Origin: an uncultured Gammaproteobacteria bacterium
GTDB taxonomy: Bacteria > Patescibacteriota > Patescibacteriia > PEXW01
Direction: 5' to 3'
Assembly (NCBI GenBank): GCA_964486505.1
Contig: CAZAMC010000003.1
Coordinates: forward strand, 139,120 to 203,119
Length of the DNA stretch: 64,000 nt
Made by a program: the position numbers and the translations under genes. This document shows positions 5,797-62,066 of this stretch, piece after piece. Position 1 is the first letter of the stretch. Every line of letters starts with the position of its first letter. The notes beneath the pieces were generated by a model, which did no database searches, was not told the DNA's origin, and saw nothing but the letters and a program-made list of their open reading frames with translations.

Positions 5797-5846
5797 AGAT
5801 CTAGGATTGGTGGAATCCTAGGGACAAAAGCAGCCGTCGTCAACAA

Positions 5847-6845: not shown

Positions 6846-6848
6846 ACA

Positions 6849-7793
6849 TTATTTTTTAAAAGCGTCGTGGTGGGTGGTGATGTAGCGTAGTGTACCAGAC
6901 TGCCCCCGGAGCACCATGGAGTGGGTAATGACCCGATCGTTCTGAAACAGAACACCGGGCAGGAGCGGCCCCTCAATCACCCCCGTGCAGGTGAACGTGA
7001 GCTGCTCGCCTTTTGCCAAGTCAGCCGCGGCCCACACCTTGGTCGCGTCATGGCCGAAAGCCGTAAGCCGCTGTTCTTGCGTCTCACCCTTCGGCGCAAA
7101 GCGGCCAAGCAACTGGCCGCCCATAATTTTTATTGGCACTGCGGCGAGCACACCCTCGGTGCTCCCACCAATGCCCATGAGCGCATCAATTTCATTACCC
7201 GGGGTGCATGCCGCTATGGCGCCGGCAACATCACCATCGGTGATGAGGCGCACGCGTGCGCCGGCCCGCCGGATGTCCTGGATGAGCTGCTCGTGCCGCG
7301 GCCGATCCAGCACAATCACCGTCACCTCGCCCACATCTTTCCCTAAAGCTTTTGCTACCTTCTGGAGGTTGTCTGCAACTGGCGCGTCCAGATCAATGAC
7401 GCCTGCGGCCTCTTTTCCAACGGCAATCTTCTGCATGTACACGTCTGGCGCGGCGAGCAAACTTCCTTCTGCTCCCGCAGCAATGACGGCAATAGCGTTG
7501 TACCGACCGAACGCCACGCTATCTGTACATTCAAGTGGATCAATAGCCAAATCCATCCGCGGGCCGTTGCCGGCGCCAACGTCTTCACCATTGAAGAGCA
7601 TGGGCGCCTTGTCTTTCTCGCCTTCGCCAATCACCACTGTGCCGGTGAAAGCAATCTGGTTAAACCGGCTGCGCATCTGGTCCACTGCAGCTTGGTCAGC
7701 AGCTTTGTCGTCGCCCTTGCCAATCCACTTGGCGGCAGCAATAGCGGCAGCTTCGGTAACGCGGACGAATTCGAGGGCAAGGTTACGGTCCAT
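6849..7793 (-). CDS. glpX: Fructose-1,6-bisphosphatase class II (GlpX)
   Basis: Near full-length similarity to GlpX: LALEFVRVTEAAAIAAAKWIGKGDDKAADQAAVDQMR...VIGEGEKDKAPMLFNGE...DLAIDPLE...MGIGGSTEGVLAAV. Adjacent to fba, forming a gluconeogenic pair. Confidence 0.9.
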   Translation of the reverse strand: MDRNLALEFVRVTEAAAIAAAKWIGKGDDKAADQAAVDQMRSRFNQIAFTGTVVIGEGEKDKAPMLFNGEDVGAGNGPRMDLAIDPLECTDSVAFGRYNAIAVIAAGAEGSLLAAPDVYMQKIAVGKEAAGVIDLDAPVADNLQKVAKALGKDVGEVTVIVLDRPRHEQLIQDIRRAGARVRLITDGDVAGAIAACTPGNEIDALMGIGGSTEGVLAAVPIKIMGGQLLGRFAPKGETQEQRLTAFGHDATKVWAAADLAKGEQLTFTCTGVIEGPLLPGVLFQNDRVITHSMVLRGQSGTLRYITTHHDAFKK

Positions 7794-11418: not shown

Positions 11419-12051
11419 TTACTTCACCAACCCCGTGACCGCTGTTGCCTCAATGCTCACCCAATGCACATCACGGCGCTTCCCTTGATCCGCAAACATC
11501 CGGGATGATTGAATACTAAAGCCGGCATGCCGAAGCAGGCTTTCCATCTCCTTCTTCGTAAAGTACGTAAAGAATCGGGGGAGTTTAGACAATGTATCGG
11601 TCACCCACCCAGAACCTCTACCAACCTTCACCCGCACATGCAGGCAGCCACCGGGGACAAGAACCTTCTGCAAACGTCGGAGAACGGGGGGAACATCTTG
11701 CCGCTGCAAATGCAGGAGCACGGCGTTCGCCCAAACCGCATCAAAGGACTTCGGCGGAAAGGCCAACTTCCGGACATCCATGAAAATGAATCGCCCTTTC
11801 GGTACTCGCTTCTTTGCAAGCGCCAGGAGGGTTGTACTCGTATCAATACCGGTGACGCGTAGCCCTTCCTTCACAAAATACTGGGCATCACGTCCACCGG
11901 CACAGCCCACTTCCAAAACCCGTGATCCTTTGGCCAACGTCTTTGCAAACGCCTTCCGCTCCTCTGGGACAAGCGGTTCAATGGAGCGCACGTATGCACG
12001 CCCCAACGTGTTGTAGGTCTTCCGCGTCTCCTCGTAAACCGAGGCAGGCAT
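11419..12051 (-). CDS. Class I SAM-dependent methyltransferase
   Basis: Motif I VLEVGCAGGRD, and a Methyltransf_11/25-like layout. Its start overlaps the gdh stop (TAATG). Confidence 0.75.
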   Translation of the reverse strand: MPASVYEETRKTYNTLGRAYVRSIEPLVPEERKAFAKTLAKGSRVLEVGCAGGRDAQYFVKEGLRVTGIDTSTTLLALAKKRVPKGRFIFMDVRKLAFPPKSFDAVWANAVLLHLQRQDVPPVLRRLQKVLVPGGCLHVRVKVGRGSGWVTDTLSKLPRFFTYFTKKEMESLLRHAGFSIQSSRMFADQGKRRDVHWVSIEATAVTGLVK

Positions 12052-13325
12052 TACTTCACTAGCCCCCGCGCCTTCATGGCGTCTTCCACACGCTTCAAGG
12101 CCACAATGTACGCACCAGTGCGCAGGTCAACCTTATGCTTCTCGGCGGCGGCCCACACGTCGTTGAAGCTCGTGGTCATCACCTGCCGTAACTTCGTGAA
12201 CACTTCTTCCTTGGTCCAGTACGCCCCGCCAAGATTCTGCGCCCACTCGAAGTAGCTCACGGTCACACCGCCGGCGTTAGCCAAAATGTCTGGCACTACT
12301 GGAATCTTGCGGCGGAAAAGTTTCTCATCAGCATCCGGCGTGAGCGGGCCGTTGGCCATCTCCACAATTGCCTTCGCCTTAATCTTCCCGACGTTCTTCC
12401 CAGTAATGACGTTCTCCAGCGCGGCAGGAATGAGCACGTCAACCTTCAGCTGCAAGAGTTGATCGTTGGTAATCTGCTTGTAGTTCTCGCAGTCACACAC
12501 CGAGCCAATGCAGTAACACCCGTCAATCATCCCTTTCTCCTTCTTGGCGTGCATCACGTTTCGCGGGTCCATGCCCTTGCCGCGCACATCCAAGATCCCG
12601 CCTTTGGAATCGGAGAGGGCGATAATCTTGTAGCCCAAATCGTGCAGCTTCTCCGCCACGTAGTAGCCCACGTTACCAAAACCTTGCACCGCAATGGTCG
12701 CGCCCTTCTTGAGTTTGAGTTTCTTCGCCAATTCTTCAAAGACCATAGCGCCCCCAAACCCCGTAGCTTCGGTGCGGCCTTGCGAACCGCCAATGGCCAA
12801 GGGTTTGCCGGTAAACACCGCCGGTTCCCACGCGCCCGTCAGCCGTGCATACTCGTCCACCATCCAGCCCATAATCTGCGGTGTGGTGTACACGTCCGGC
12901 GCTGGTACATCGGTGCGCGGTCCCAGGTACTTCACGAACGCCCGTACCCACGCACGGGAGAGCGCTTCAATTTCCCGGGCCGACAACTTTTTCACGTCAA
13001 CGATAATGCCGCCCTTGCCGCCACCCATGGGAATGCCAGCCACGCCCGTCTTCATGGTCATCCAGAAGGCCAGTGCCTTCACTTCGTTGAGGTCAACCTT
13101 GGGATAGTAGCGAATGCCGCCCTTGAACGGTCCGCGCGCGTCGTTGTACTGGACGCGAAAGGCGGTAAAGCTCTTCGTCGAGCCATCATCCATGGTAATG
13201 GTAAGGCTCGCTTCCATAATGCGCTGCGGTTTCTGCAACGATTCAAGAAAGCGTGGATCAAGCTGGGCAACCGCGGCAGCTTTCTTTAGCTGGCGCATTG
13301 CGTTGGCAAAAGGATTCTCGGCCAT
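12051..13325 (-). CDS. gdhA: Glutamate dehydrogenase (Glu/Leu/Phe/Val dehydrogenase family)
   Basis: 424 aa with GPFKGGIRYYP, GIPMGGGKGGIIVD, GFGNVGYY and GGVTVSYFEW, the classic GDH signatures. Confidence 0.9.
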   Translation of the reverse strand: MAENPFANAMRQLKKAAAVAQLDPRFLESLQKPQRIMEASLTITMDDGSTKSFTAFRVQYNDARGPFKGGIRYYPKVDLNEVKALAFWMTMKTGVAGIPMGGGKGGIIVDVKKLSAREIEALSRAWVRAFVKYLGPRTDVPAPDVYTTPQIMGWMVDEYARLTGAWEPAVFTGKPLAIGGSQGRTEATGFGGAMVFEELAKKLKLKKGATIAVQGFGNVGYYVAEKLHDLGYKIIALSDSKGGILDVRGKGMDPRNVMHAKKEKGMIDGCYCIGSVCDCENYKQITNDQLLQLKVDVLIPAALENVITGKNVGKIKAKAIVEMANGPLTPDADEKLFRRKIPVVPDILANAGGVTVSYFEWAQNLGGAYWTKEEVFTKLRQVMTTSFNDVWAAAEKHKVDLRTGAYIVALKRVEDAMKARGLVK

Positions 13326-13358
13326 ATGGTCGTAGGTAGTTGAGGAGGAATAGGATGA

Positions 13359-14327
13359 CTAACGTCTGGACGTGCCCCAGTCGATGCGCGCCCCCCGCTT
13401 GCCCGTAAGTTTGAGCAGGTACTGGTCAGCTTCCAAGGCGGCTTTGGCACCTTCGCCAGCCGAAATAACCACTTGCTTAAACGTAATTGTGGTAATGTCG
13501 CCCGCTGCGAATATGCCCGGTTTTGAGGTTTCGCAGTTGGGGCCAATTTTAATTTGCCCTCGGGGGTCGGTTTCCACAATACCCTTCACCCAGCCGGCTT
13601 TGGCCATGTACCCAATTTCCACAAAGACCACATCGGCAGGGATGTCTTGCAACTCCTGCGTCTTCTTGTTGAGAATCCGAATGCCGGTCACCGAGGTGTC
13701 ACCCAAAACTTCTTTCGTCTCTGCGCTATCGATGACCGAAATGTTCGAATGCTCGGTCATACGCTGGATGACAACCGTTTCCGCGGTGAGGTGTTCGTTC
13801 ACGTTGACGAGCTGCACCGTACTCGCCAGGTGTGCCAATGTAATCGCCGCTTGCACGGCCGATGAGCCGCCACCAATAACGAGAACATTCTTATCTTTGT
13901 AGTAGTGCGCTTCGCAAATTGCACAGTACAGCAAGCCCTTCCCGCTCAGCCGCTCTTCACCCGGTACGTTGAGGTGGCGATGGGAAAGACCAAAGGCGAG
14001 GATGACAACCGGTGCATCATACGACGTCGTTGCTGTGCGCACTGTGTACGTGCCGTCAGCCTTGGGTTCGAGTGCCGTTACCGTGTCAAAGGAGAACAAG
14101 GCACCGTACTTCTCGGCTTGGGCTTTGAACTTCTTCATTAAGTCCAGCCCATCAATGAACTCAATGCCTGGGTAATTCTCAATATCCGGCGTTGTGGCGG
14201 CCTGCCCGCCAACGTCCTGAGAAATGATCATAGTCTTGTACCCTCGACGGGCCGTAAACATGCCAGCCGTTAACCCGGCTGCGCCACCCCCGACGACGAT
14301 GACCTCAAACCCAGTAGGCATTTCCAT
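13359..14327 (-). CDS. Thioredoxin-reductase-like flavoprotein lacking the HRR NADPH motif (atypical CAIC redox motif)
   Basis: FAD motif VIVVGGGAAG and redox motif YCAICEAHYY (canonical is CATCDGFF); GGGSSAVQAA is present, but the HRRD/R NADPH-phosphate motif is replaced by VNVNE. Sits immediately downstream of trxA. Confidence 0.75.
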   Translation of the reverse strand: MEMPTGFEVIVVGGGAAGLTAGMFTARRGYKTMIISQDVGGQAATTPDIENYPGIEFIDGLDLMKKFKAQAEKYGALFSFDTVTALEPKADGTYTVRTATTSYDAPVVILAFGLSHRHLNVPGEERLSGKGLLYCAICEAHYYKDKNVLVIGGGSSAVQAAITLAHLASTVQLVNVNEHLTAETVVIQRMTEHSNISVIDSAETKEVLGDTSVTGIRILNKKTQELQDIPADVVFVEIGYMAKAGWVKGIVETDPRGQIKIGPNCETSKPGIFAAGDITTITFKQVVISAGEGAKAALEADQYLLKLTGKRGARIDWGTSRR

Positions 14328-14336
14328 GGCTCTAGC

Positions 14337-14660
14337 TTACAACGTTTTCTTCAGTTCCTCCATGATGGCTTGCTTCGTCTGTAATCCCGCAACCCGCCAC
14401 ACTGGCTTCCCGCCCTTGAAAATCGCCAAAGTCGGGATGCTCATGATTGCGTGGGCTTGGGCAGTGACCGGATTTTCATCTACATCAAGCTTGCAGACCT
14501 TGGCCTTATCGCCAATCTCTTTTGCAATCTCTTCCACAATTGGGCCCTGCACTTTGCACGGGCCACACCAGGTTGCCCAAAAATCTACAAGGACCGGCTT
14601 GGTGGGTTCATCAACTACCTCTTTTTGGAAGTTCTGGTCATTGAGGATCACTTCGGACAT
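14337..14660 (-). CDS. trxA: Thioredoxin
   Basis: 107 aa with the WCGPC active site (DFWATWCGPCK). Confidence 0.9.
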   Translation of the reverse strand: MSEVILNDQNFQKEVVDEPTKPVLVDFWATWCGPCKVQGPIVEEIAKEIGDKAKVCKLDVDENPVTAQAHAIMSIPTLAIFKGGKPVWRVAGLQTKQAIMEELKKTL

Positions 14661-14705
14661 ACGGGCGCGTGGGGTTAAGGAAGGGAAGGTGAGTATAGGA
14701 ATTGG

Positions 14706-15047
14706 CTACGTACCCGACAATGGTCTTTTCATGGGCAAATAGGTACGGGACCAAGAAGCCATGGCGTGCAGGACCTTCTTGAAGGCTCGCCCGCTGGGTG
14801 TCAAGCTGTATTCTACCCGGGGCGGGGCTTCGCGGAAGGTTTTCCGGCTTATCATGCCGCAGGCCTCCAGCTCGCGGAGGCGCTTGGTAAGGGTACGGCT
14901 GCTCGTCTGCCCTACGTCGGCCATGAGCTCAGAAAAACGACGTGACTTTTTCTCGGCTAAGCGCTGGAGGATAACGAACGCTTCACGATCATTTACGTAC
15001 CCGCATAACCGGTCAACTGGACATGAGCCTGATTTTAATGCTTTCAT
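14706..15047 (-). CDS. HxlR-family winged-helix transcriptional regulator
   Basis: CPVDRLCG...REAFVIL..L....RFSEL......SRTL...LRELEACGMISRK..REAPPRVEYSLTPSG matches the HxlR pattern. Confidence 0.75.
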   Translation of the reverse strand: MKALKSGSCPVDRLCGYVNDREAFVILQRLAEKKSRRFSELMADVGQTSSRTLTKRLRELEACGMISRKTFREAPPRVEYSLTPSGRAFKKVLHAMASWSRTYLPMKRPLSGT

Positions 15048-15160
15048 AAGTAAAGTATTACCTACGCGAAGTTTGTTGTCAAATGGCTGCTTCGTTGTAG
15101 TACTCTATAGGCAGCAACACCTGCTTAGATTCCTACCTTACCTGTGAGAGGAGGTGCGCT

Positions 15161-15892
15161 ATGAAACGAAAATCTATAAGTCTGTCGGTACTCTCGCTTC
15201 TTGCGATGCTCTTCATTGCTCTACCGCAAGGTAGCTTTGCTGCATCCATAGATTCTGACCAGGATGATGTTAGCAACGCTCGTGATCCATTACCCTACGA
15301 CCACGACAACGATGGCATCGTTGATAGTCGTGATACGGATGATGATGACGATGGCATCCGTGATGCACTGGAGGCACTTACGGTACGTCTCGACCACGAT
15401 AACGATGGCATTAAAGACGTTACTGACACGGACGACGACAACGACGGCGACAAAGACAAGAGTGAGCGCCGAAAGCAGTTTGACCATGACAACGATGGTA
15501 CACGAGACCTACTCGACAGCGATGACGACAACGATGGGACTCGTGACACCAGTGAACGTACGCTCACACGTCGGTATGACCATGACAACGACGGCCTCCG
15601 TGACGATCGCGATGTTGACGATGATGAAGATGGGTTAGAAGACGTAGATGATCTCTACGACTTTGACCATGACAACGACGCAGTGCGTGATGATCGCGAT
15701 ACTGACGACGATGAAGATGGAATCGAAGATTCTGAAGACTCACATGACTGGGACCATGACAATGATGGGACAGTTGATGACGAAGACTCAGATGATGATT
15801 CCGACGGCATTAGTGATACAGAGGAGGAAGACGGAGAAGAGTGGGACTATGATAACGATGGCACAGCTGACGACGAGGAAACCTCTTCCTAA
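15161..15892 (+). CDS. Secreted highly acidic repeat protein (seven DxDNDGxxD calcium-loop-like / thrombospondin-type-3-like repeats)
   Basis: RBS GAGGAGG; signal peptide MKRKSISLSVLSLLAMLFIALPQGSFAAS; then DHDNDG(I/T/L)xD...D(T/S)DDD(N/E)DG repeated 7 times, with about 45% D/E content. The coding DNA here is visibly more AT-rich than its flanks. Confidence 0.7.
   Translation: MKRKSISLSVLSLLAMLFIALPQGSFAASIDSDQDDVSNARDPLPYDHDNDGIVDSRDTDDDDDGIRDALEALTVRLDHDNDGIKDVTDTDDDNDGDKDKSERRKQFDHDNDGTRDLLDSDDDNDGTRDTSERTLTRRYDHDNDGLRDDRDVDDDEDGLEDVDDLYDFDHDNDAVRDDRDTDDDEDGIEDSEDSHDWDHDNDGTVDDEDSDDDSDGISDTEEEDGEEWDYDNDGTADDEETSS
15290..15870 (+). repeat. In-frame tandem DNA repeats (~75-90 nt units) encoding the DHDNDG...DDDxDG modules
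   Basis: Recurring gaccatgacaacgatgg...gatgacgatggcat units visible directly in the sequence. Confidence 0.55.
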
Positions 15893-15906
15893 GGAAATAA
15901 ACAATT

Positions 15907-15933
15907 GGCAGCGCAAAGCTGCCTTTTGTTTTT
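15907..15933 (+). terminator. Rho-independent terminator
   Basis: GGCAGCGCAAAGCTGCC hairpin followed by TTTTGTTTTT. Confidence 0.55.
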
Positions 15934-16016
15934 CCTGCCAAGCAGAAAGCATGTGGAGACTAGCTTTGGGAGAAGAATCTATAATCGCAAAACTAGAAGC
16001 TGTTATGGTACTTAAG

Positions 16017-16048
16017 CAAAAAACAGGACCATAGTGCGTCCTGTATTT
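16017..16048 (-). terminator. Terminator ending the minus-strand tRNA operon
   Basis: CAGGAC...GTCCTG hairpin flanked by A and T tracts, immediately 3' of tRNA-Ala(GGC). Confidence 0.5.
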
Positions 16049-16124
16049 TGGTGGACCTCAGGGGACTCGAACCCCTTACCTCTTCCATGCCATGGAAGCG
16101 CTCTACCAGATGAGCTAGAGGCCC
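16049..16124 (-). tRNA. tRNA-Ala (anticodon GGC)
   Basis: Reverse complement is GGGCCTCTAGCTCATCTGGTAGAGCGCTTCCATGGCATGGAAG...TTCGAGTCCCCTGAGGTCCACCA: cloverleaf, G3:U70 Ala identity pair, anticodon loop AT-GGC-AT, encoded CCA. Confidence 0.9.
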
Positions 16125-16150
16125 ATATTTTGCCTAACACTAGCACTTAT

Positions 16151-16178
16151 TTTCAAAATGTTCCACGTGGAACATTCT
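16151..16178. promoter_or_regulatory. Conserved element with perfect 14-bp palindrome GTTCCACGTGGAAC (copy 1), upstream of tRNA-Ala(GGC)
   Basis: ttttcaaaatGTTCCACGTGGAACattc; 27 of 28 nt identical to copy 2. Confidence 0.4.
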
Positions 16179-16285
16179 CAATGCCGGGAACCACAACTTC
16201 AGCTAGGCATAGACTTTCGGTGCACGGAGCGCACGAGTCGCAATCACTTAGGGGCTCTTACTACCTAACAAAGAAACATTCTTCT

Positions 16286-16361
16286 TGGTGGACCAAAGGG
16301 GATTCGAACCCCTGACCTCTGCAATGCGAATGCAGCGCTCTACCAGCTGAGCTATTGGCCC
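16286..16361 (-). tRNA. tRNA-Ala (anticodon CGC)
   Basis: Reverse complement is GGGCCAATAGCTCAGCTGGTAGAGCGCTGCATTCGCATTGCAG...GGTTCGAATCCCCTTTGGTCCACCA: G3:U70, anticodon CGC. Confidence 0.9.
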
Positions 16362-16376
16362 ATGGATACTAGTGAT

Positions 16377-16405
16377 TTTCAAATTGTTCCACGTGGAACA
16401 TTCCT
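16377..16405. promoter_or_regulatory. Conserved palindromic element GTTCCACGTGGAAC (copy 2), upstream of tRNA-Ala(CGC)
   Basis: ttttcaaattGTTCCACGTGGAACattcc. Confidence 0.4.
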
Positions 16406-16630
16406 TTTCATTTTTGTTTCTCAACTGTGCCCCTAACGCAAATCCTACGAGGGGAGTACACATCTGTGTGTCTAAGTGACGGATTCTTTGCCGTACAACG
16501 CGAAGGCGATCTGCCCATAACTATTCGCCCCACACCTCCCTTTGAGGGTATTAAGACACTCGCTATTTTAAGGATGACAAGTCATTACTTTTAGATGGCC
16601 CGCCATGAACCCGTGCATAGCGAGCAGTTC

Positions 16631-16705
16631 ATGGTGCCCCCGGAGGGAATTGAACCCCCATCTCTCCCTTAGGACGGGATAGCTCTATCCTTTGAGCTAC
16701 AGGGG
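16631..16705 (-). tRNA. tRNA-Arg (anticodon CCT)
   Basis: Reverse complement is GCCCCTGTAGCTCAAAGGATAGAGCTATCCCGTCCTAAGGGAG...GGGGGTTCAATTCCCTCCGGGGGCACCA: 75 nt, U33-CCT-A37. Confidence 0.85.
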
Positions 16706-16719
16706 CTAATTCTCTAGTT

Positions 16720-16905
16720 TTAGCTATTATTTAGTGTCGCAAAATATATCCAGTTTGAAACCCTATCAATTACTGTGCTCGTTTTATCGAAGTAGGCTAC
16801 TATACCAAACAGGACAGCGATACCGATAATGAGCAATCCTAACGTGCGAAGGTCGCTCCGGATAAATTTGTTTGCCGCGTGCGGCGCTGGTGAGGGTGTG
16901 TACAT
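16720..16905 (-). CDS. Possible small membrane protein (61 aa)
   Basis: One hydrophobic helix (LGLLIIGIAVLFGIVAYF); no clear RBS. Confidence 0.3.
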   Translation of the reverse strand: MYTPSPAPHAANKFIRSDLRTLGLLIIGIAVLFGIVAYFDKTSTVIDRVSNWIYFATLNNS

Positions 16906-16948
16906 AATCCACGTGAGTGTACCGTAACCAATTCTTCACAGCAATTCC

Positions 16949-16977
16949 TTTGACCACATTTCTGTTCCTAACTACAA
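16949..16977 (+). promoter_or_regulatory. Sigma70-type promoter upstream of the bactofilin gene
   Basis: TTGACC (16949-16954), a 17-nt spacer, then TACAAT (16972-16977). Confidence 0.5.
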
Positions 16978-17007
16978 TACCCTACCTCAGACTTAAACGT
17001 ATACCCT

Positions 17008-17385
17008 ATGGCAATGTTTAAAGGTGACAACTCTTCCGGGCATGAAGTTGGAACGGTTATTGGTGCAGGAGTAAAAGTTGAAGGGAACTTCACGGGCGAA
17101 GGCAACGTGGTCGTTGATGGTCAGCTGCAGGGCTCGTTAAAAACAAAACACAATGTGCAGGTGGGCGCCGGCGCGCTGGTGAAAGCGAATGTTGAGGCCC
17201 ATGACATCCAGTTAGCCGGAGAACTTCATGGAAACGTGAAGGCCACGGGGAAACTCGTCCTCGCGCCCAGCGCAAAACTTACTGGCAACGTTGAGGTAGG
17301 CTCGCTCTCAATTGCCGAAGGCGCTAGCTTCAATGGCAAGTGCGCAATGTTGAGCAGCCAAAATTCTGTCGCCGCTGTGAAGTAG
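17008..17385 (+). CDS. Bactofilin (polymer-forming cytoskeletal protein, DUF583)
   Basis: GEGNVVVDGQLQGSLKTKHNVQVGAGALVKANVEAHDIQLAGELHGNVKATGKLVLAPSAKLTGNVEV is the beta-helical bactofilin repeat pattern. Confidence 0.8.
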   Translation: MAMFKGDNSSGHEVGTVIGAGVKVEGNFTGEGNVVVDGQLQGSLKTKHNVQVGAGALVKANVEAHDIQLAGELHGNVKATGKLVLAPSAKLTGNVEVGSLSIAEGASFNGKCAMLSSQNSVAAVK

Positions 17386-17388
17386 TTC

Positions 17389-18129
17389 ATGTATACGTAC
17401 GTCGTCGAAGCAAGCGCGAACACGAAGAAGCACGAGGTTGAACTTGCGCGAGTAGAATCGCGGCTCATTGCTTTGGAGATCGGCGGCCGAATTGAAAAAC
17501 TTACAATCCTAAAAAGTTTGAAGGAAACCCTCAACGACGCGGCGCGTTCAGCTAGCTCAACGGTTGTACTCATTGGCTCGGATAAACTTGTAAACGAAGC
17601 TATGTCAACGCTGGCAGAGCTTGATGTTACGGTAGGCATTATCCCAATAGGGGAACCAACCGTTATTGCGAACGCTCTGGGCATTCCGTACGGCGTTGCC
17701 GCGTGCGACATTCTCTCCGCTCGCATTACCGCTGCACTCGATCTCGTTCGGGTGAACAACCGTTACTTTCTCTCGACCCTGCACCTGCCGGTGGGCGCAG
17801 CCGTAACGCTAGATTGTGATAATCGCTACCAGGTAACCGCCACTACGCCCGCGGCAATCGATATTGCGAACTTTAGTGAAAGTAGCAACCCCAATGATGG
17901 ACAGCTTGAAGTCATTGTTCGCCCAGAAGAAAAATCGGGACTCTTTTCTTTCGGTCGAAAATTTAGCAAGGCCAGCGTTTTCCCTTTTAAGAAATTAACG
18001 ATCCGGAGCGGCAGCGAGAGTCTGCCCATCATGGCCGATGGGGAAACCGTACTCAAAACCCCGGCGACTATTGAAGTTGCGCCACACCGCCTGAAACTCA
18101 TCGTTGGCAAGCACCGCCACTTCGCGTAA
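17389..18129 (+). CDS. Divergent diacylglycerol-kinase-catalytic-domain-like (YegS/DAGK_cat-like) protein
   Basis: VVLIGSDKLVNEA ... GIIPIGEPTVIANALGIP resemble the GGDGT...GIIPLGTGN motifs of DAGK_cat in degenerate form. Confidence 0.45.
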   Translation: MYTYVVEASANTKKHEVELARVESRLIALEIGGRIEKLTILKSLKETLNDAARSASSTVVLIGSDKLVNEAMSTLAELDVTVGIIPIGEPTVIANALGIPYGVAACDILSARITAALDLVRVNNRYFLSTLHLPVGAAVTLDCDNRYQVTATTPAAIDIANFSESSNPNDGQLEVIVRPEEKSGLFSFGRKFSKASVFPFKKLTIRSGSESLPIMADGETVLKTPATIEVAPHRLKLIVGKHRHFA

Positions 18130-18212
18130 AACCCCGGTAACAAGGGGATATTGCTGCTCCTACTGAAGGGTGCTAGTTTAGGGTTAACCCGAAAAACCAC
18201 AAGGAGTCGTGC

Positions 18213-18341
18213 ATGAAGAAACTGCGCAAGGACAAGGCCCCCAAGCGCCCCGCGCGCAAGCGACCCACCTCACCGGCCGCTAGCTACATTCCTGATCGTG
18301 GACACCTGATCAGCGAGTACGCCCGCACGCGGCACCAGTAG
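18213..18341 (+). CDS. Small basic protein (42 aa) of unknown function
   Basis: RBS CAAGGAG 7 nt upstream of the ATG; a possible promoter TTGCTG-17-TAGTTT sits upstream; sequence MKKLRKDKAPKRPARKRPTSPAASYIPDRGHLISEYARTRHQ. Below the ORF-track length cutoff. Confidence 0.35.
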   Translation: MKKLRKDKAPKRPARKRPTSPAASYIPDRGHLISEYARTRHQ

Positions 18342-18405
18342 CGTTCCGCGCCTGTACTCTGTACCCATCCCGCCCACCAGCCAACTGGTGGGCGCTCTAT
18401 ATGCA

Positions 18406-18434
18406 TTGACGAAAAGGGGTTATTTCCGTAGAAT
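18406..18434 (+). promoter_or_regulatory. Sigma70 promoter for infB (near-leaderless transcript)
   Basis: TTGACG (18406-11), a 17-nt spacer, TAGAAT (18429-34), then only 10 nt to the infB ATG at 18445. Confidence 0.55.
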
Positions 18435-18444
18435 CTACGCACGT

Positions 18445-20439
18445 ATGAACGTTACTGAGCTTGCCCGACGGCTTCGCATTCCGGTTCAGGACCTTCGCAC
18501 AGCGTTGCCGAAGCTCGGGTTTGGCATTGGCTCGAAGGCCCACAAAGTTTCGGACGTGGTTGCACAGGGTATCATTAAGAAACACAAGGAGCAGCCCGAG
18601 CTCTTCGAGCCCGAAAAAGAAGTAGATGAAATTGCCATAGCCGAGAAGACGGCCGTCTCTGGGCCAGTCGAAATTCCATCGCGCATTACGGTGCGTGAAT
18701 TTGCCGCACGCCTTGGCAAGCCGGCACCGCTGGTTATCTCCCACTTGATGAAGAATGGAATCTTAGCAACGCTAAACGAAGAAATTGACTTTGACACCGC
18801 TTCAATTGTGGGTTCGGACTTTGGGGCGAATGTGATGCGCCAGAAAGAGCAGACCACAAGCGAGCGCGAGACCGAACTTGCAGATAAAGTGACGCAGCTC
18901 ATTGCCGCCGATGAGCACAAGACGTACAGTCGCCCGCCCGTTGTCGTGGTCATGGGGCACGTTGACCATGGGAAGACCAGCCTGCTCGATGCTATCCGCA
19001 AAGCAAAGGTTGCTGAAAAAGAACATGGCGGCATCACGCAGCACATCGGTGCATACCAAGTGACCCACGAAGGCAAGCTCATAACCTTCATTGATACACC
19101 GGGCCACGAAGCCTTCACCGCCATGCGCTCCCGCGGGGCGAATGTTGCCGACATTGCTATCGTGGTCATTGCGGCAGACGATGGCATAAAACCCCAAACC
19201 CGAGAAGTACTCAACATCGTGGAGCGCACGAAGCTGCCTTTCGTTGTGGCGATCACAAAGATTGATAAGGACGGCGCGAGCGCTGACAAGGTAAAGACTG
19301 ATCTAGCCTCCATCAACCTGCAGCCAGAAGACTGGGGCGGCAAGGTGATGACGGTGCCAGTTTCGGGTAAAACAGGCGCGGGCATTCCAGACTTACTGGC
19401 CGCAATTAACCTGGTGGCCGACGTTGAAAAAGACAAGCTCCTCTCCAATCCAGAAGGCAAACTTGTTGCTACGGTTATTGAGTCCCACGTGGATCCGGGT
19501 GAAGGCCCCATTGCCACGGTGCTCGTGCAGAACGGCACCCTCCGCCAAAGTGACTTCATCGTTGCGGGGCCGGTGGTGGGGAAAGCCCGCAACCTGAAGA
19601 ACTGGAACAACGAAATTGTGGATGCCGCGGGCCCCTCCATGCCTGTGGTCATCCTGGGCTTGAAAGCGGCGCCCTCGGTGGGCGACATTCTCGAATCTCC
19701 GGAAGACGAAAAGGCGGCTCGGAAGCTCATGAAGCAACAGGAAGCGGCGTTGCGGCTCATGCAAATGAAGGCTCGCGAATCGGCCAAGACTGCGTCGGTC
19801 ATCGCTGGCAAATCGGTAACCGGTGACGTAACAAAACTGCCGCTCTTCCTCAAGGCCGACAAAGTTGGCTCCATGGAAGCAATCATCGAGAGCATGAAGG
19901 CCTTCAGCTTTCCCGAAGTTCGCCCCGAGGTAGTGGGCCAAGGTCTAGGCGACATCACAGAGTCAGACGTGCTGCGGGCCGAACAGGCAGGAGCGTGGCT
20001 GCTGGGCTTTAACGTGAGCGTGAGCCCCAAGGTAGTATCCAATGCCCGAACCAAAGTTGAAACCTTCACCGTCATTTACGAACTTTTGGATGCAGTGAAA
20101 GCTGGCTTGGAAGAAAAAGTAGGCGCCGATGTGGTGGAAGAACCCGTCGGCCAAGCCCGGGTACTCAAGGTCTTCCGGAGCGAAGGGAAAACTGCGATTG
20201 CGGGGGCGAAGGTTACCGAGGGCGTTGCCAAGGCGAAAGCGAAGGTCCGCGTCTTCCGTGCCGGAAAAGTCTTGGCCACGGTGAAGTTGGAGCAACTCCA
20301 GCAGAACAAGCAGAGCGTGGGTGAAGTGGCGACAAACTTGGAGTGCGGACTCAAACTCTCGGGCTTTGCAGGCATTACCGAAGGGGACACCTTGGTGTTC
20401 GTCGAGGAAAAACTTGTGAAGCGCAAACTCGAAGGGTAA
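18445..20439 (+). CDS. infB: Translation initiation factor IF-2
   Basis: IF2_N motif (MNVTELARRLRIP), G-domain VVVMGHVDHGKTSLLD...DTPGHEAF...NKIDK, and IF-2 beta-barrel domains. The track start at 18388 lies inside the promoter; 18445 is preferred. Confidence 0.9.
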   Translation: MNVTELARRLRIPVQDLRTALPKLGFGIGSKAHKVSDVVAQGIIKKHKEQPELFEPEKEVDEIAIAEKTAVSGPVEIPSRITVREFAARLGKPAPLVISHLMKNGILATLNEEIDFDTASIVGSDFGANVMRQKEQTTSERETELADKVTQLIAADEHKTYSRPPVVVVMGHVDHGKTSLLDAIRKAKVAEKEHGGITQHIGAYQVTHEGKLITFIDTPGHEAFTAMRSRGANVADIAIVVIAADDGIKPQTREVLNIVERTKLPFVVAITKIDKDGASADKVKTDLASINLQPEDWGGKVMTVPVSGKTGAGIPDLLAAINLVADVEKDKLLSNPEGKLVATVIESHVDPGEGPIATVLVQNGTLRQSDFIVAGPVVGKARNLKNWNNEIVDAAGPSMPVVILGLKAAPSVGDILESPEDEKAARKLMKQQEAALRLMQMKARESAKTASVIAGKSVTGDVTKLPLFLKADKVGSMEAIIESMKAFSFPEVRPEVVGQGLGDITESDVLRAEQAGAWLLGFNVSVSPKVVSNARTKVETFTVIYELLDAVKAGLEEKVGADVVEEPVGQARVLKVFRSEGKTAIAGAKVTEGVAKAKAKVRVFRAGKVLATVKLEQLQQNKQSVGEVATNLECGLKLSGFAGITEGDTLVFVEEKLVKRKLEG

Positions 20440-20808
20440 ATGCCTTCCAAACGCGTCAACCAACTCAACGCCTTGCTCCAGCAGAAACTGGGGGAAATTT
20501 TTCTCATAGAAATGAACTTCCCCGAAGGCGCTGTGGTCACCATAACCCGCGTCGAAACAACGGGGGATATTCGTCACTGTGTCGTTTTCCTGTCGGTCCT
20601 ACCGGAAAAGTTTGAGGGCGGCGTGCTAACGTTGCTGAACAAGCGCTTGCCCTTCCTGCACCACGAGCTCATGAAGGCGCTCACCCTCTCCCGCATCCCC
20701 ACCCTGCACTTCCGCATTGAAACGCGCGGCAAAGCGGCGGGCGATATTGAAAAGTTACTGGACCAAGTGAAGGCGGATTTGCCGCCGGAGGAACTGCGGC
20801 CGCAATAG
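20440..20808 (+). CDS. rbfA: Ribosome-binding factor A
   Basis: RbfA pattern (RVNQLNALLQQKLGEIF...VTITRVETTGDIRHCVVFLSV) and the conserved infB-rbfA order; stop/start junction TAAATG. Confidence 0.85.
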   Translation: MPSKRVNQLNALLQQKLGEIFLIEMNFPEGAVVTITRVETTGDIRHCVVFLSVLPEKFEGGVLTLLNKRLPFLHHELMKALTLSRIPTLHFRIETRGKAAGDIEKLLDQVKADLPPEELRPQ

Positions 20809-20846
20809 CAAGAAAGGACCGCGCAGAGCACGGTCCTCAAGGATGA

Positions 20847-21080
20847 CTACAACCTCGGGCTAAATTTTTTCGATCCCGATGGTGGGGATGGCGGGCCTCC
20901 ACGTCCAATCCGAGAGATGACGAAGCCGATGACCAGGATGATCACGAAAATGGCCACGGGAGCTCTCAGGTCTCTTAGCATTGCTCCCGGCGTGTCCCAC
21001 GCTTCGGCATCCGGGTTGTTAAGTGCGGCCACGTTTGAACCAATCACGAGCAAAAAACACAACAGAATGAACTTTTTCAC
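20847..21080 (-). CDS. Small secreted/membrane protein (77 aa, GTG start)
   Basis: GGAGG then 8 nt then GTG; signal peptide MKKFILLCFLLVIGSNVAA and a second TM helix (VAIFVIILVIGFVI). Confidence 0.45.
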   Translation of the reverse strand: MKKFILLCFLLVIGSNVAALNNPDAEAWDTPGAMLRDLRAPVAIFVIILVIGFVISRIGRGGPPSPPSGSKKFSPRL

Positions 21081-21186
21081 TTGCAAACCTCCGGTCAACT
21101 TTTGTGCTTACGTCGTACCACACGCCCGGTACCTCCACAAGTTGGAGGCGTAAGTAGAGCGCCCACACGGGAGCGCTCCGAACAGA

Positions 21187-21513
21187 CTACTCATTGGTGT
21201 CCCAGAAAAAGTCCTCTCTGCTGGCGCCGATGCGAATGCTGCTCCCAGCCGTTAACAGCTTTTCAGCTTTTTCGCGTATCTCACTAACTTCCTGTTCCTT
21301 GAATGGCATGCCGAGCATGAGCAGCTCTACAGATGCACGCACCGTACTGCCATAAACATTCGAGTCAGCGACTTGCCAAACGGACACACAGTGGACTTTT
21401 TCAGGATGACCGTGCGCGGTTGCTACAATCAGTGGCAGCGCATCCTGCAGGTCCTGACACTTTTTGAGGTCTGGACCAAACGTGTTAATTTTCATCAGAA
21501 CCACAATGTTCAT
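21187..21513 (-). CDS. Hypothetical protein (108 aa)
   Basis: Strong RBS AAAGAGGAGG 5 nt upstream of the ATG; no recognised family (contains an AHGHPEKVHC segment). Confidence 0.55.
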   Translation of the reverse strand: MNIVVLMKINTFGPDLKKCQDLQDALPLIVATAHGHPEKVHCVSVWQVADSNVYGSTVRASVELLMLGMPFKEQEVSEIREKAEKLLTAGSSIRIGASREDFFWDTNE

Positions 21514-21613
21514 TGTTCCTCCTCTTTCAAATCAATTTGGTTTTGTGCAACAGCCAAGGCTAACACTCTGCGGTTTCCGATGTCAAGGGCGGGAGATGGT
21601 CAAGCTAATCTAC

Positions 21614-21642
21614 AAAAGCCCGACAGTTATTGTCGGGCTTTT
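21614..21642. terminator. Bidirectional rho-independent terminator
   Basis: AAAA-GCCCGACAgttatTGTCGGGC-TTTT. Confidence 0.5.
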
Positions 21643-21662
21643 CATAATGAACGTGGGCAGAC

Positions 21663-21857
21663 TTAGGCGTGGCCACCATTGGGCTGAACCTTGAGCCAGC
21701 GCACTGCCACCACCTCGCGACAGAAAGCGTAGAACGCCGTACCCGCGAGAGCACCGATGATGATGCTCGCCACAGACAGCAGGGCTCCACCCTGCAAAAA
21801 GTACCGTTCAGCGACGAAAGTGACGACCATGCCAAGCGAGGCGTCGACCAAACACAT
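21663..21857 (-). CDS. Possible small membrane protein (64 aa)
   Basis: ORF ends just upstream of the terminator; hydrophobic segment LLSVASIIIGALAGTAFYAF; no RBS found. Confidence 0.3.
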   Translation of the reverse strand: MCLVDASLGMVVTFVAERYFLQGGALLSVASIIIGALAGTAFYAFCREVVAVRWLKVQPNGGHA

Positions 21858-22092
21858 TGCCCGGTCACGACAGTGGACGACACCGCACCGGCTGCGGCGC
21901 CAGCATACATCCTGACGCCAAGGCCCTGGGGCCGCGCACCTGTAAGAAGCAGCATGAAATCCTGTGCCAGAGCGGCTGCGATTTCTGTCCGCACTGCGGC
22001 CAGGACATTAGTTTCTACCGCTTCTTCTTGGTCGCCTAAACTCCCGGCCAACCCCTCCCTTGGGTTGGCCGGCTTTCCATTGCCGTCGTGGT

Positions 22093-22121
22093 CTTGACGC
22101 AGTACGCTGGACGTCGTACAG
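22093..22121 (+). promoter_or_regulatory. Sigma70-type promoter for nrnA
   Basis: TTGACG, a 17-nt spacer, TACAGT, then 14 nt to the ATG at 22136. Confidence 0.45.
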
Positions 22122-22135
22122 TACGTGATCTTCTT

Positions 22136-23110
22136 ATGACTGACCACCTCGCCACCTACGACGCCATTACCCAGGCAATCCGCGACGCTCGGGAAATCCT
22201 GCTCATTGCCCACAAAAAGCCGGATGGCGACACCCTGGGAGCGAACCTCGCCGTAGCCAATTGGCTGCGGGACCAAGGGCGCCACTTCCACATCTACTGC
22301 ACCCATCCCGTGCCCGCCCACTTCCAGTACCTGCCGCTCTGGCAGCACGTGAAAACCACCGATGAAGAACTGGCGGGCATCCCGTTTGACCTGGTGATCG
22401 CCATTGATTCATCCAGCCTGTCGTACTCGGGGGCCGAAGACCTGGTGAGCAAACTCCAGGGCAAACCAAAGATTGTGAACATCGATCACCATGCCACGAA
22501 TCCACACTTCGGCGATCTCAACGTCGTGGATGCTTCCGCGTCCTCGGCCTGCGAGCTGGTGTACCGCTTCCTCACGCATGTGGGCGGGACTGTAACCCGC
22601 GATATTGCTACGTGCTTGCTCACGGGCATCCTCACCGACACCGGCGGCTTCTCCAACATGGCCACAACGTATGAAGCCATGGACATTGCGGGCACGCTCC
22701 TCAAGCGGGGCGCGAAATTCCGGGCTATCACCAACCACACCGTTCGGAACAAATCCGTTACGACGCTCAAACTCTGGGGCCGCGCTTTGGACCGACTCAC
22801 GCGTCACGCGAATGGCGTCGTCAGCACCGTCATAACGCAGGCAGACTTACAAGAGTGCGAAGCCACGGAGGACGACATGGAAGGCATTGCCAACTTCCTC
22901 AACGCGCTCCAGGACGCCAAGATCATCATGGTGCTCAAAGAACAAGATGGAATGGTGAGGGGTAGCCTGCGCACCACCGAGCCCGACGTGGACGTTGCCG
23001 AGCTGGCGAAGCGCTGGTTTGGCGGGGGTGGACATAAGAAAGCCGCGGGCTTCAGCGTGCCGGGCAAACTCGTCCAGACCCCACACGGCTGGCGAATCGA
23101 AAGTGTATAA
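22136..23110 (+). CDS. nrnA: DHH-family phosphoesterase NrnA (oligoribonuclease / pAp phosphatase)
   Basis: DHH motifs (HKKPDGDTLGA, NIDHHATN) and DHHA1 (GGGGHKKAAG). Confidence 0.85.
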   Translation: MTDHLATYDAITQAIRDAREILLIAHKKPDGDTLGANLAVANWLRDQGRHFHIYCTHPVPAHFQYLPLWQHVKTTDEELAGIPFDLVIAIDSSSLSYSGAEDLVSKLQGKPKIVNIDHHATNPHFGDLNVVDASASSACELVYRFLTHVGGTVTRDIATCLLTGILTDTGGFSNMATTYEAMDIAGTLLKRGAKFRAITNHTVRNKSVTTLKLWGRALDRLTRHANGVVSTVITQADLQECEATEDDMEGIANFLNALQDAKIIMVLKEQDGMVRGSLRTTEPDVDVAELAKRWFGGGGHKKAAGFSVPGKLVQTPHGWRIESV

Positions 23111-23150
23111 AAAAGGAGCCGAGATTGTGTCTCGACTCCCGTGAAGAACA

Positions 23151-25970
23151 TTACTTCGATTCCATCTTTACAAGAATCTGGCCGAGCATCTCCAAGCGGC
23201 GTCCAGCTTCGGCAAATTTGCCTTCGCTGTTCAACTGCTTGTACTCGCTGAAGAGCCGGCGCGCTTCGTCAGCAAGGTTGCTGTCTCCGCCCGCCACATT
23301 GTTGGTCAAGCCCCCTGCCAGAACTTCAACGTGGCCACCTTGCCGGTTCAGTAGATCCTGCAAAGCTTCATTGAAGGTTGCGCCGTACCCAAGCGCGGTT
23401 TGACTTGCAACGACAACGCGCTGGAGCTGCGGCATATTGGCGTTCTCTGACTGCAGGTAGATAGGCGCCACGTACAGGAGCTCAAAGTTCGGCAGCGGGA
23501 TGACGAGGACATCACGCTGGATGACATTCGATCCCTTCTGATTCCACAGAGTGAAGTCTTGGGAGATCTTATCATCTTGATTAATGTTGGCGTTCACCTG
23601 CAGGGGCCCGTAGACCAGCCGATCTTTGGGGAAATGGTACACGTACAGTTCCCCGTACGCGTCACCATCGCAACGAGCGGCAATCCACGCCACCATGTTG
23701 TTCTTGGTGTTCGCGGGGTCTTTGGTGTGCGGGGTAAACGGGAGCATACCCACGTACTCTTCAGTCGCATGACCGGGGAGTTGCATGAGCAGGTAATACG
23801 CCGGCATACGACCGACGTTCCCATCACCACTCTGCTGCGCCACATCCCAGGCATCTTCCTGATTGTAGAAGAGCCCAGGGTCGTTCATGTGATACCGGCA
23901 GAGCATGTCCGCTTGAATATTGAGCAAGTCTTCGGGGTAACGAATGTGCTTGCGCAACGAAGCCGGCATTTGCTCCATGGGCGTAAAGAGCGACGGGAAG
24001 ATACGCTCCCAGGTCTGGATCATCGGGTCAGTTGAATCTGACACGTAAAACATGACCCGGCCATTGAAGGCGTCGATCGTGATCTTTACCGAATTGCGGA
24101 TGTAGTTAATGTCCGCCCCGTGCTTTTCTGAGTACGGGTACTTATCGGTCACGGTATATGCGTCCAGCATGTAGTAGAGGGCGCTGTCCGCAACAACACA
24201 GTAGGGATCAAAATCAAGCCTCAGAAATGGAGCAAGCTTCTTTACCCGAGTAATGATGTCGCGATCAAACAGAATGCGACTTTCGGCATGAAGCTCGCTG
24301 GCCATAAACATACGGAAGCCATCAAACGCCCAGGCGAGAGCCAGCTTATGCAGACCGGTACCGAGAGGCACGCCGCCCGTACCGTTATAGGTATACAGTA
24401 CGTTCGTTCCGGAGTCGGATGGGTAATCAAACTCCTTGTGGCTCGTCTGTACTATCACCGTAGAGTTGGTCACCTCGCCGTAGTAGATACGCGGCTGTTT
24501 GATCCCAAGTTCGGGATACTTCGCTTGCGCGGGGATATCCTTCACCCAGTAATCAGGTTCACCACGACCCAGTACGACGTTGGATGGGTTCATGCACACC
24601 CCCATGCCATGGGTGTAGACGAGGCGTAAGTTCTGCCACGTCTGCGCCTGCTCGGTGATGTGGTCACTATAGAGCTCCCGCGGGGCAACCATAAGCTGCA
24701 CCGCTTTGCCCTGCACTTCATACCGGTCAACGTCGACATCGGGGAACCCGTAGTAGGTTCTCAGAGCCTGACGGTTGTGATTGTTTGCAATCAACACCCG
24801 CCAGTCCCATAAACGGATACTCCCCAGCGTCCCGGCACTTACTTGCAGCGTCGAGCTCGTAATACTGTCGTGCAGCGCGAACTCTTTATCGTGGATATGC
24901 GAGAGGTTATAGGCCTCACGCGTGGCCACAATGTTCCGCTCAATGTAGACCTGTTCTTTGGTCAGTTCATTCGGCGCTACGCTGTAGTGCTGAACCAACC
25001 CTGGATACAGAACCATGCCTGAGAGGAAAAATAGCACTGCGCCACCGAAACCGATGATCAACGACCGAACCGTAAACTTCAGGCTCTTATGGAAAGCGCC
25101 TATGAAATTCACGGCGGCGAAAATCACTAGCAGCCACTGCGCCAGCTGGTACATCGGCAGTCGGGCATGTAAGTCTGTGTAGCCAGCACCGACGACGACG
25201 CCGTTGGTGGAGTACACAAGTTCCCACATGTTAAGCCGCGCGCCCCAAGCGAAAAGCAGAAGCATGCATGCGACGAGGAAGGAACCGTGACTGAGTAGCA
25301 AGTACTTCAGCCGGCGGTTGCGTTCCATTACGGCTCTCGATTCATTGCTCCAGGAGTTGTAGTTCCATACGCACTTGGTGAGGTAACCAGCCGCCGTAAG
25401 GGCAGCCGCACACACGATAAGCCCGAAGAAGTACGTCGCAAGATCGTTGAACCACGGGAGAGCGTAAACGTAGAAGCTAATGTCCTTATTGAACACCGCA
25501 TCTACTTTCCCAAACCCCACGTGTGCCCCGTACTGCAAGTACGTTTCCCAGCTAGACGCTGTGAAAAGGCCGGCGATGACTGAAACACCTGCAAAGATCG
25601 ACACCAATTGACCATGGGAGGGGTAGGCAATCCCTTCTGTACGGCCTATGGGGTGAAGATCTTCTTTCCGAACCTTCCACTGGATGAACTTGGCGTTGGC
25701 CCAGAGTACCAGGAAGAACCCGAGCGTACCGAAGATGAATAGCTGGACTTTCGTCCAGAATCCTGTCCAGTACACACTGGCCTGCCCGAGCTCCTCAAAC
25801 CACATTGCATTCACCCACACTCCCGACGCAATAATCGCCAGGATTATGGCTACGTCAGCCGCTATTGCGGACCATACTGCTAGTCCTTTCCACGGACGCT
25901 TGCGTATTGCAGCGAGCACCCAAGGAATGTGCACAGCGACAAAGAGGACGGTGATGAGGAAACCAAACAC
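23151..25970 (-). CDS. UPF0182 family large membrane protein
   Basis: 939 aa: N-terminal ~7 TM helices, then a large extracytoplasmic domain, matching UPF0182 architecture. The coding region is visibly lower in GC than its neighbours. Confidence 0.75.
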   Translation of the reverse strand: MFGFLITVLFVAVHIPWVLAAIRKRPWKGLAVWSAIAADVAIILAIIASGVWVNAMWFEELGQASVYWTGFWTKVQLFIFGTLGFFLVLWANAKFIQWKVRKEDLHPIGRTEGIAYPSHGQLVSIFAGVSVIAGLFTASSWETYLQYGAHVGFGKVDAVFNKDISFYVYALPWFNDLATYFFGLIVCAAALTAAGYLTKCVWNYNSWSNESRAVMERNRRLKYLLLSHGSFLVACMLLLFAWGARLNMWELVYSTNGVVVGAGYTDLHARLPMYQLAQWLLVIFAAVNFIGAFHKSLKFTVRSLIIGFGGAVLFFLSGMVLYPGLVQHYSVAPNELTKEQVYIERNIVATREAYNLSHIHDKEFALHDSITSSTLQVSAGTLGSIRLWDWRVLIANNHNRQALRTYYGFPDVDVDRYEVQGKAVQLMVAPRELYSDHITEQAQTWQNLRLVYTHGMGVCMNPSNVVLGRGEPDYWVKDIPAQAKYPELGIKQPRIYYGEVTNSTVIVQTSHKEFDYPSDSGTNVLYTYNGTGGVPLGTGLHKLALAWAFDGFRMFMASELHAESRILFDRDIITRVKKLAPFLRLDFDPYCVVADSALYYMLDAYTVTDKYPYSEKHGADINYIRNSVKITIDAFNGRVMFYVSDSTDPMIQTWERIFPSLFTPMEQMPASLRKHIRYPEDLLNIQADMLCRYHMNDPGLFYNQEDAWDVAQQSGDGNVGRMPAYYLLMQLPGHATEEYVGMLPFTPHTKDPANTKNNMVAWIAARCDGDAYGELYVYHFPKDRLVYGPLQVNANINQDDKISQDFTLWNQKGSNVIQRDVLVIPLPNFELLYVAPIYLQSENANMPQLQRVVVASQTALGYGATFNEALQDLLNRQGGHVEVLAGGLTNNVAGGDSNLADEARRLFSEYKQLNSEGKFAEAGRRLEMLGQILVKMESK

Positions 25971-26239
25971 ATGAACCTCCTTCTAATAGGTCTTGTATAT
26001 TGAATTTTTACAATTTTTCAACGTGCGCTCCAGGAATCTGGAATCACTATGTTTGCAAAGCTCTAGCTGAGCATTCCAAACGTGCCAGCATAACTCATTT
26101 TTTCAAATTTGTCAAGGTGTGCCACTATTCGGGATCAATATTTTTTCTCTGCAATCACCGGTTGACCGCCCGCACAGATTGACGGAACAGTGCTTTTGCC
26201 ATATACCACTACTACCTACTCCCTAGCCTCATCTCACGT

Positions 26240-26824: not shown

Positions 26825-26836
26825 ATCCCCGCCCAA

Positions 26837-26861
26837 ACGCGCAGTACCCCTGCGCGTTTTG
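26837..26861 (+). terminator. Rho-independent terminator after clpP
   Basis: CGCGCAG / CTGCGCG stem followed by TTTT. Confidence 0.5.
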
Positions 26862-26950
26862 CATTTCTCAGAGAACATGGTATGGTACGGTCTGCTACGA
26901 AACTGGCGGATTTTCCGCAGTAGCCCTCAAATCCCACATGTTCCTCCCTT

Positions 26951-62031: not shown

Positions 62032-62066
62032 GTAGCGAGAAACTGTACGAGCTTACTGGCGGAGCG

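Follow-up and report, generated by a model that had tools for sequence, protein, structure and literature searches.

Two palindromes in the spacers of a putative tRNA operon are probable chromosomal parS sites in an uncultured Patescibacterium

We analyzed a 64-kb stretch of DNA (hereafter the window; GC ~56%) in which three minus-strand tRNA genes lie between a GDH-TrxR-Trx-HxlR gene group and a bactofilin-DAGK-IF2 group, with the bactofilin gene directly adjoining the tRNA cluster (Table 1). The best homologues of the window's IF-2 were found in Patescibacteria/Parcubacteria MAGs. The three tRNA genes are bracketed by one promoter-like site upstream (TTGATA-17-TATTTT), which overlaps the clade-conserved motif TATATTTTRCGACAC ahead of tRNA-Arg, and by one minus-strand terminator-like site downstream. 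Together with their spacers, each of which carries a palindromic element identified below as probable parS, they probably form one transcription unit, and their arrangement is consistent with co-transcription. The putative tricistronic order is promoter, tRNA-Arg(CCT), parS, tRNA-Ala(CGC), parS, tRNA-Ala(GGC), terminator. No RNA family besides tRNA reached the Rfam gathering score in the region, and the sub-threshold matches all overlapped tRNA genes. The motif TATATTTT(A/G)CGACAC (window 16734-16745, minus strand) recurs upstream of tRNA-Arg(CCT)/parS clusters in divergent Patescibacteria and is also present in loci L003, L006, L008, L132, L134, L135-137, L144, and L145, making it a candidate promoter of the tRNA operon.

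Three further features of the window concern other genes. A 243-aa aspartate-rich repeat protein of the D-x-D-x-D-G-x-x-D type, encoded with its own terminator (15907-15923), had no Pfam match. At three other tRNA genes, tRNA-Lys(CTT), tRNA-Arg(TCG), and tRNA-Val(TAC), a conserved trailer of ~95 nt abuts the CCA end and is laid out as GCTCGTTTCG, a variable GC-rich hairpin, and CGAAGCCTCGCT..CCCCGCAAACCCGTGCTCGCC; the trailer decamer GAAGCCTCGS was found three times versus 0.5 expected. Immediately upstream of tRNA-Arg(TCT) lies a gene for a XerC/D-type tyrosine recombinase with Phage_integrase and SAM-like N-terminal domains.

Table 1. Positions of the features discussed, in window coordinates unless a related locus is named.
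Feature	Position	Strand	Description
HxlR regulator gene	14706-15047		neighbor of the tRNA cluster
243-aa aspartate-rich repeat protein	15161-15892	+	D-x-D-x-D-G-x-x-D type
Intrinsic-terminator-like hairpin and T-run	16023..16044	-	directly 3' of tRNA-Ala(GGC)
tRNA-Ala(GGC)	16049..16124	-	last gene of putative tRNA operon (ARAGORN, Rfam)
Flank common to both copies	16150..16158	-	minus-strand TTTTGAAAA; copy-2 equivalent 16376-16384 = ATTTGAAAA
parS-1 (probable)	16159..16174	.	perfect 16-bp palindrome TGTTCCACGTGGAACA; tRNA-Ala(GGC) 34 nt downstream
tRNA-Ala(CGC)	16286..16361	-	middle gene of putative operon (ARAGORN, Rfam)
parS-2 (probable)	16385..16400	.	perfect 16-bp palindrome TGTTCCACGTGGAACA; tRNA-Ala(CGC) 23 nt downstream
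tRNA-Arg(CCT)	16632..16706	-	first gene of putative operon (ARAGORN, Rfam)
Candidate operon promoter	16734..16769	-	TTGATA-17-TATTTT overlapping clade-conserved motif ATTTTGCGACAC; predicted
Bactofilin gene	17008-17385	+	adjoins the parS/tRNA cluster
IF-2 gene	18388-20439
tRNA trailers	30394-30490; 30653-30750; 55325-55419	+; +; -	window
XerC/D-type tyrosine recombinase	61957-63041	-	upstream of tRNA-Arg(TCT)
Split parS-like sites	L008 2085-3905; L003 1-1130	-	relatives
Pseudo-tRNA/hairpin regions	L003 about 160-420; L004 5290-5760; L008 2400-3130		relatives

The two palindromic elements reported in the first-pass annotation are real: in the whole 64-kb window the 14-mer GTTCCACGTGGAAC has two exact matches, at 16160-16173 and 16386-16399. 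The one further match, at 19482-19495 within the IF-2 gene, has two mismatches and is at chance level (0.37 expected per window at ≤2 mismatches). The palindrome, first described as 14 bp, is indeed perfect but longer, extending over 16 bp in both copies and, with the flanks AATG...CATT, over 20 bp in copy 1 (AATGTTCCACGTGGAACATT). The elements of 28/29 nt that contain it are identical at 27 of 28 positions, as annotated, but their coordinates are 16150-16177 and 16376-16404, one base lower than originally given. Likeness between the copies stops at the edges of the 28-nt element, and a longer flank, ATTTGAAAAT on the tRNA strand, is common only to closer relatives.

Because the tRNAs lie on the minus strand, the elements are upstream of both tRNA-Ala genes, in agreement with the first-pass annotation, which also held up in its estimate that these genes are ~82% identical (63/76, 83%) and in its observation that the 28-nt elements are more alike than the tRNAs they precede. 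The two 16-mers are 226 bp apart, and their distances to the tRNA, measured from the end of the 16-mer to the tRNA 5' end, differ between copies by the ~11 nt that had been noted (34 versus 23 nt). The motif is absent upstream of all six other tRNA genes in the window, tRNA-Ala(TGC) included. Isolated half-sites are near chance level in the window, with 15 occurrences of GTTCCAC (4 inside the two full sites) versus ~8 expected.

We compared the 16-mer with characterized centromere sites and found that TGTTCCACGTGGAACA matches P. aeruginosa parS2 and parS3 at 16 of 16 positions at both window sites (PMC4368675, Table 1) and is also the parS of P. putida, while the M. xanthus parS consensus is 1 nt off the 16-mer (...AACG; PMC7022226, Table 1). 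Both window sites fit the parS consensus tGTTNCACGTGAAACa as a 16-bp inverted repeat, and for genome scans we propose the pattern TGTTNCACGTGNAACA with ≤2 mismatches. An exact 16-mer scan of 185,579 species genomes, one genome per species, returned at least 120 loci, and the matches listed include Bacteroidota, Acidobacteriota, Proteobacteria, Verrucomicrobiota, Planctomycetota, Nitrospirota, Myxococcota, Firmicutes, and Actinobacteria. When ORFs lying up to 1.2 kb from the motif were clustered, six families recurred, which Pfam identified (ParB by ParB_N and HTH_ParB); among the matches listed MnmG/GidA, RsmG/GidB, ParB, RecF, GyrB, or DnaN lay within 1.2 kb at 88 of 120 loci. Among the matches listed, 34 of the 120 loci carried the 16-mer at least twice within 8 kb. 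Together, these six origin and par families and the multiple copies are the signature of a chromosomal centromere parS. parS sites usually occur clustered, and related Patescibacterial loci carry 2-4 sites within ~1.5 kb, alongside the closely spaced pair in the window.

Both palindromes are thus very probably, judging from their sequence and its distribution, chromosomal parS sites at which ParB (Spo0J) would load. The element is of a known kind, in a lineage where it is uncharacterized. It resembles the chromosomal parS of B. subtilis, P. aeruginosa, P. putida, M. xanthus, and C. crescentus in being a perfect inverted repeat, in forming a small cluster, and in its strong conservation. The sites here differ in that they lie in what sequence indicates are tRNA-operon spacers and not in or beside parB, gidA/B, or dnaN-recF-gyrB. 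The half-site sequence is shared with the half-parS sites bound by P. aeruginosa ParB (GTTCCAC/GTTTCAC), but here both halves are present and form the full palindrome.

To follow the element in close relatives independently of the motif, we picked genomes by their IF-2 protein, at 88% (L003-L005), 84% (L006), and 74% (L008/L009) identity. All of these loci share the window's synteny, with GDH-TrxR-Trx-HxlR, the tRNA cluster, and bactofilin-DAGK-IF2, and each carries exactly two 16-mers, one upstream of each tRNA-Ala gene at the same intergenic positions. Conservation does not extend to the DNA between palindrome and tRNA, where insertions of GC-rich hairpins and pseudo-tRNA fragments stretch the 23-34 nt to 131-254 nt. 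Distant relatives chosen through IF-2 alone (L144-L146; 47-48% identity, GC 33-48%) kept the synteny in three of three cases, with parS at 0-2 mismatches in the same tRNA cluster (for example TGTTCCACGTGGAACG, TGTTCCACGTAGAACA, and the symmetric variant TGTTCTACGTAGAACA). Every IF-2-chosen relative, from 88% down to 47% identity, therefore retains a parS or near-parS in the tRNA-Arg(CCT)/tRNA-Ala/tRNA-Ala cluster. The first-pass annotation had argued for function over neutral duplication, and this is borne out by the motif, which precedes the orthologous tRNAs in all relatives examined; because the element is conserved in relatives, neutral recent duplication is refuted. The shared gene order is long, running in the window (12051-29422) and in L144-L146, down to 47% IF-2 identity, as GDH-TrxR-Trx-(HxlR or CsoR-like regulator)-tRNA/parS-bactofilin-DAGK-IF2-RbfA-DHH-ClpP-RNase Y-YmdB-HU. 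The bactofilin gene stays adjacent in genomes of 27-56% GC and at bactofilin identities as low as 42-49%.

The sites in L011-L143 were fetched by exact pattern, so the invariance of the 16-mer among them is circular, and the unbiased loci are only L003-L009 and L144-L146. Over 32 unique Patescibacterial sites, the flanks hold almost no information beyond 3 nt per side, and the three informative positions are symmetric (AAW...WTT), as expected for a dimeric DNA binder. The first-pass annotation had read the palindrome as a dyad-symmetric protein-binding site, which fits both its identity with the parS sequence and this apparent preference for symmetric flanks.

The tRNA surroundings of the relatives also contain signs of rearrangement. 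An insert of ~100 bp has seemingly split an older parS-like site (CACGTG|GAAC) at one position in L003 and at both in L008; the insert has imperfect terminal inverted repeats (CCTGCCCGCC...GGCAGGCGGG) and an intact parS inside, giving a nested parS-in-parS. Pseudo-tRNA 5' fragments (GGGCCGTTAGCTC..., GGGCCTGTGGTT...) and GC-rich hairpins occur around the relatives' tRNA-Ala genes, a 13-bp inverted repeat (TGGAAAAGTCGCC/GGCGACTTTTCCA) flanks tRNA-Ala(GGC) in L003, and L008 has a serine recombinase (5581-7065) just upstream of tRNA-Arg(CCT) (7015-7089). These fragments, hairpins, the repeat, and the recombinase suggest repeated insertions at the relatives' tRNAs.

We then considered where parS sits in Patescibacteria more broadly. 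Both Patescibacterial loci among the matches listed have parS clusters that adjoin tRNAs: L130 (Kerfeldbacteria) reads [Val-cac]-18-[parS]-4-[Ala-ggc], with a 38-nt spacer and three further parS sites, and of the three parS sites in L036, one precedes tRNA-Arg(GCG) by 87 nt. In both loci the 16-mer also occurs without a neighboring tRNA, between protein-coding genes or at the 3' end of a class-I aminoacyl-tRNA synthetase ORF. A metagenome scan with the pattern parS-N(4-34)-GGGCCNNTAGCTCA gave 13 loci (GC 27-53%), a sample biased because it was selected for tRNA adjacency; 9 of the 13 contain tRNA-Arg(CCT) with tRNA-Ala(CGC) and/or tRNA-Ala(GGC), interleaved with 1-3 perfect parS, and the other four have parS beside tRNA-Ala(GGC) alone. 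In these loci the gap between parS and the tRNA is often just 4-5 nt. Across loci, the parS-tRNA distance is 4, 5, 11, 23, 24, 31-34, 131, 137, 200, or 254 nt. Among the matches listed, the 118 loci from outside Patescibacteria all lack a tRNA within 1 kb of the 16-mer. The element itself is ordinary; its setting, conserved within a tRNA-Arg/Ala operon and next to a bactofilin gene, is new.

This context raises the possibility of dual use, in which the sites are parS and also serve some purpose through lying within the tRNA operon: tRNA transcription could be tuned by ParB bound at the sites, the spread of ParB or SMC could be limited by tRNA transcription, or processing of the pre-tRNA could be influenced by the transcribed hairpin. 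In its favor, the parS/tRNA-Arg(CCT)/tRNA-Ala linkage is retained from 27% to 56% GC and down to 47% IF-2 identity, parS comes within 4-5 nt of the mature tRNA 5' end in L130, L131, L133, L140, and L141, and in L130 it lies within the short tRNA-Val/tRNA-Ala spacer; the absence of nearby tRNAs at the 118 loci of other phyla among the matches listed and the one promoter-like and one terminator-like site bracketing the window's three tRNAs point the same way. However, the linkage could be historical contingency, with tRNA spacers among the few stable non-coding stretches in compact genomes, and tRNA order and spacing vary freely. Moreover, L036 and L130 also carry parS away from tRNAs, and the metagenome sample is biased by its selection for tRNA adjacency. 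We give dual use little chance. The bolder proposal that the placement was selected, with the Patescibacterial centromere built into a tRNA-Arg(CCT)/tRNA-Ala(CGC)/tRNA-Ala(GGC) operon beside bactofilin and mechanically coupled to tRNA transcription or processing, is tentative, and we consider it unlikely. If such coupling were true, ParB clamps could, for example, be confined or reset by passing RNA polymerases, or tRNA-Ala output could be gated by bound ParB.

The first-pass annotation had instead proposed a regulator operator, a UP/-35 surrogate, or a tRNA processing signal, readings that give way to the identity of the 16-mer with canonical parS and its occurrence without an adjacent tRNA. 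That a dimeric transcription factor, or a -35 or UP surrogate, controls both tRNA-Ala genes from these sites is highly improbable, even though the palindrome precedes both genes, its 28-nt surroundings are more similar than the tRNAs, and some copies have -10-like hexamers (TAGTAT, TAGTGT, TAATAT) 15-18 nt downstream of the palindrome. Like transcription-factor operators and UP elements, the window element is palindromic, has A/T-rich flanks, and precedes tRNA genes; unlike them, it lacks a fixed spacing to the tRNA or -10, and its sequence is shared among phyla in settings that have nothing to do with tRNAs. Relatives place it anywhere from 4 to 254 nt from the tRNA, so that a fixed geometry of promoter or operator is ruled out and the 'one helical turn' once read into the spacing difference is incidental. 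The 16-mer is also found off tRNAs in Patescibacteria and beside parB or gidA in many phyla, and it is missing upstream of the window's six other tRNAs.

Candidate -35 hexamers fared no better. TTGAAA is separated from the -10-like TAGTAT/TAATAT hexamers by no more than 5-8 nt, the spacers of 14-18 nt that TGGAAC or CACGTG would have do not agree between copies, the single scanner match (TTGAAA-18-CAAAAT) is in copy 1 only, and hexamers of the right parS arm at normal -35 distance match TTGACA at ≤3 of 6 positions. No canonical sigma-70 geometry fits both copies, and no reading combines a -35-like hexamer with a normal -35/-10 spacer at both. We also considered and rejected an operator of the neighboring HxlR regulator; in relatives, HxlR moves together with the trx genes, and this reading is unnecessary because the motif is spread across phyla.

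An RNA-level element, whether an intrinsic terminator or a pre-tRNA processing hairpin, is scarcely plausible: the minus-strand hairpin (-6.3 kcal/mol for the 16-mer, -12.6 for copy 1 with flanks, -7.5 for copy 2), the UUUU after it in copy 1, and a terminator-like flag on the plus strand at 16385-16400 would fit one, but the stem is weak, the U-tract is weak and variable (3-4 U; AUUUUG, AAUUUG, AUAUUG, AUUUGC), all 16 positions, including the ACGT 'loop', are invariant in L003-L009 with no covariation, only tRNAs reach the Rfam threshold, and a terminator 4-30 nt upstream of the next co-oriented tRNA would block that tRNA's expression.

Returning to the parS reading, we searched for par and origin genes using tblastn and Pfam on ~40 ORFs, and found no parB, parA, smc, dnaA, dnaN, or gidA/B in the 64-kb window; the same genes were likewise absent from ~250 kb of related Patescibacterial loci. 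Neither a DnaA-box cluster nor a GC-skew turn occurs within the 64-kb window. Two ORFs evaluated as divergent ParB, a 294-aa ORF between two parS sites in L036 and a 298-aa window ORF with no Pfam hits, do not look like one. A literature search for ParB or parS in Patescibacteria/CPR found nothing relevant.

A ParB dimer reads the 16-bp parS inverted repeat via its helix-turn-helix domains, and parS-stimulated CTP binding shuts ParB into a clamp that slides onto adjacent DNA. Repeated ParB loading builds a partition complex, which is moved by ParA and recruits SMC. The two parS sites of the window would, at their separation of 226 bp, make up one small ParB loading cluster, with the loading sites sitting in the spacers of the probable tricistronic tRNA unit. 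In M. xanthus, bactofilins position ParB-parS complexes (bioRxiv 10.1101/2020.06.17.156356). Compared with the bactofilin/PadC scaffold of Myxococcus xanthus, the window locus offers adjacency of the bactofilin gene alone, with no PadC or ParA seen, and a functional link between bactofilin and parS here is speculative.

Palindromes of this sequence upstream of tRNA genes should therefore be recognized as parS and not as a new regulatory element. The tRNA-operon placement, absent from the 118 loci of other phyla among the matches listed, is a modest and testable oddity. At the level of sequence, the sites suggest that uncultured, reduced-genome Patescibacteria use canonical ParB/parS segregation, and they would pin the Patescibacterial centromere to one conserved locus comprising the trx genes, the tRNA/parS cluster, and bactofilin-DAGK-IF2. 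This trx-tRNA/parS-bactofilin-DAGK-IF2 locus could mark the origin region in fragmented MAGs.
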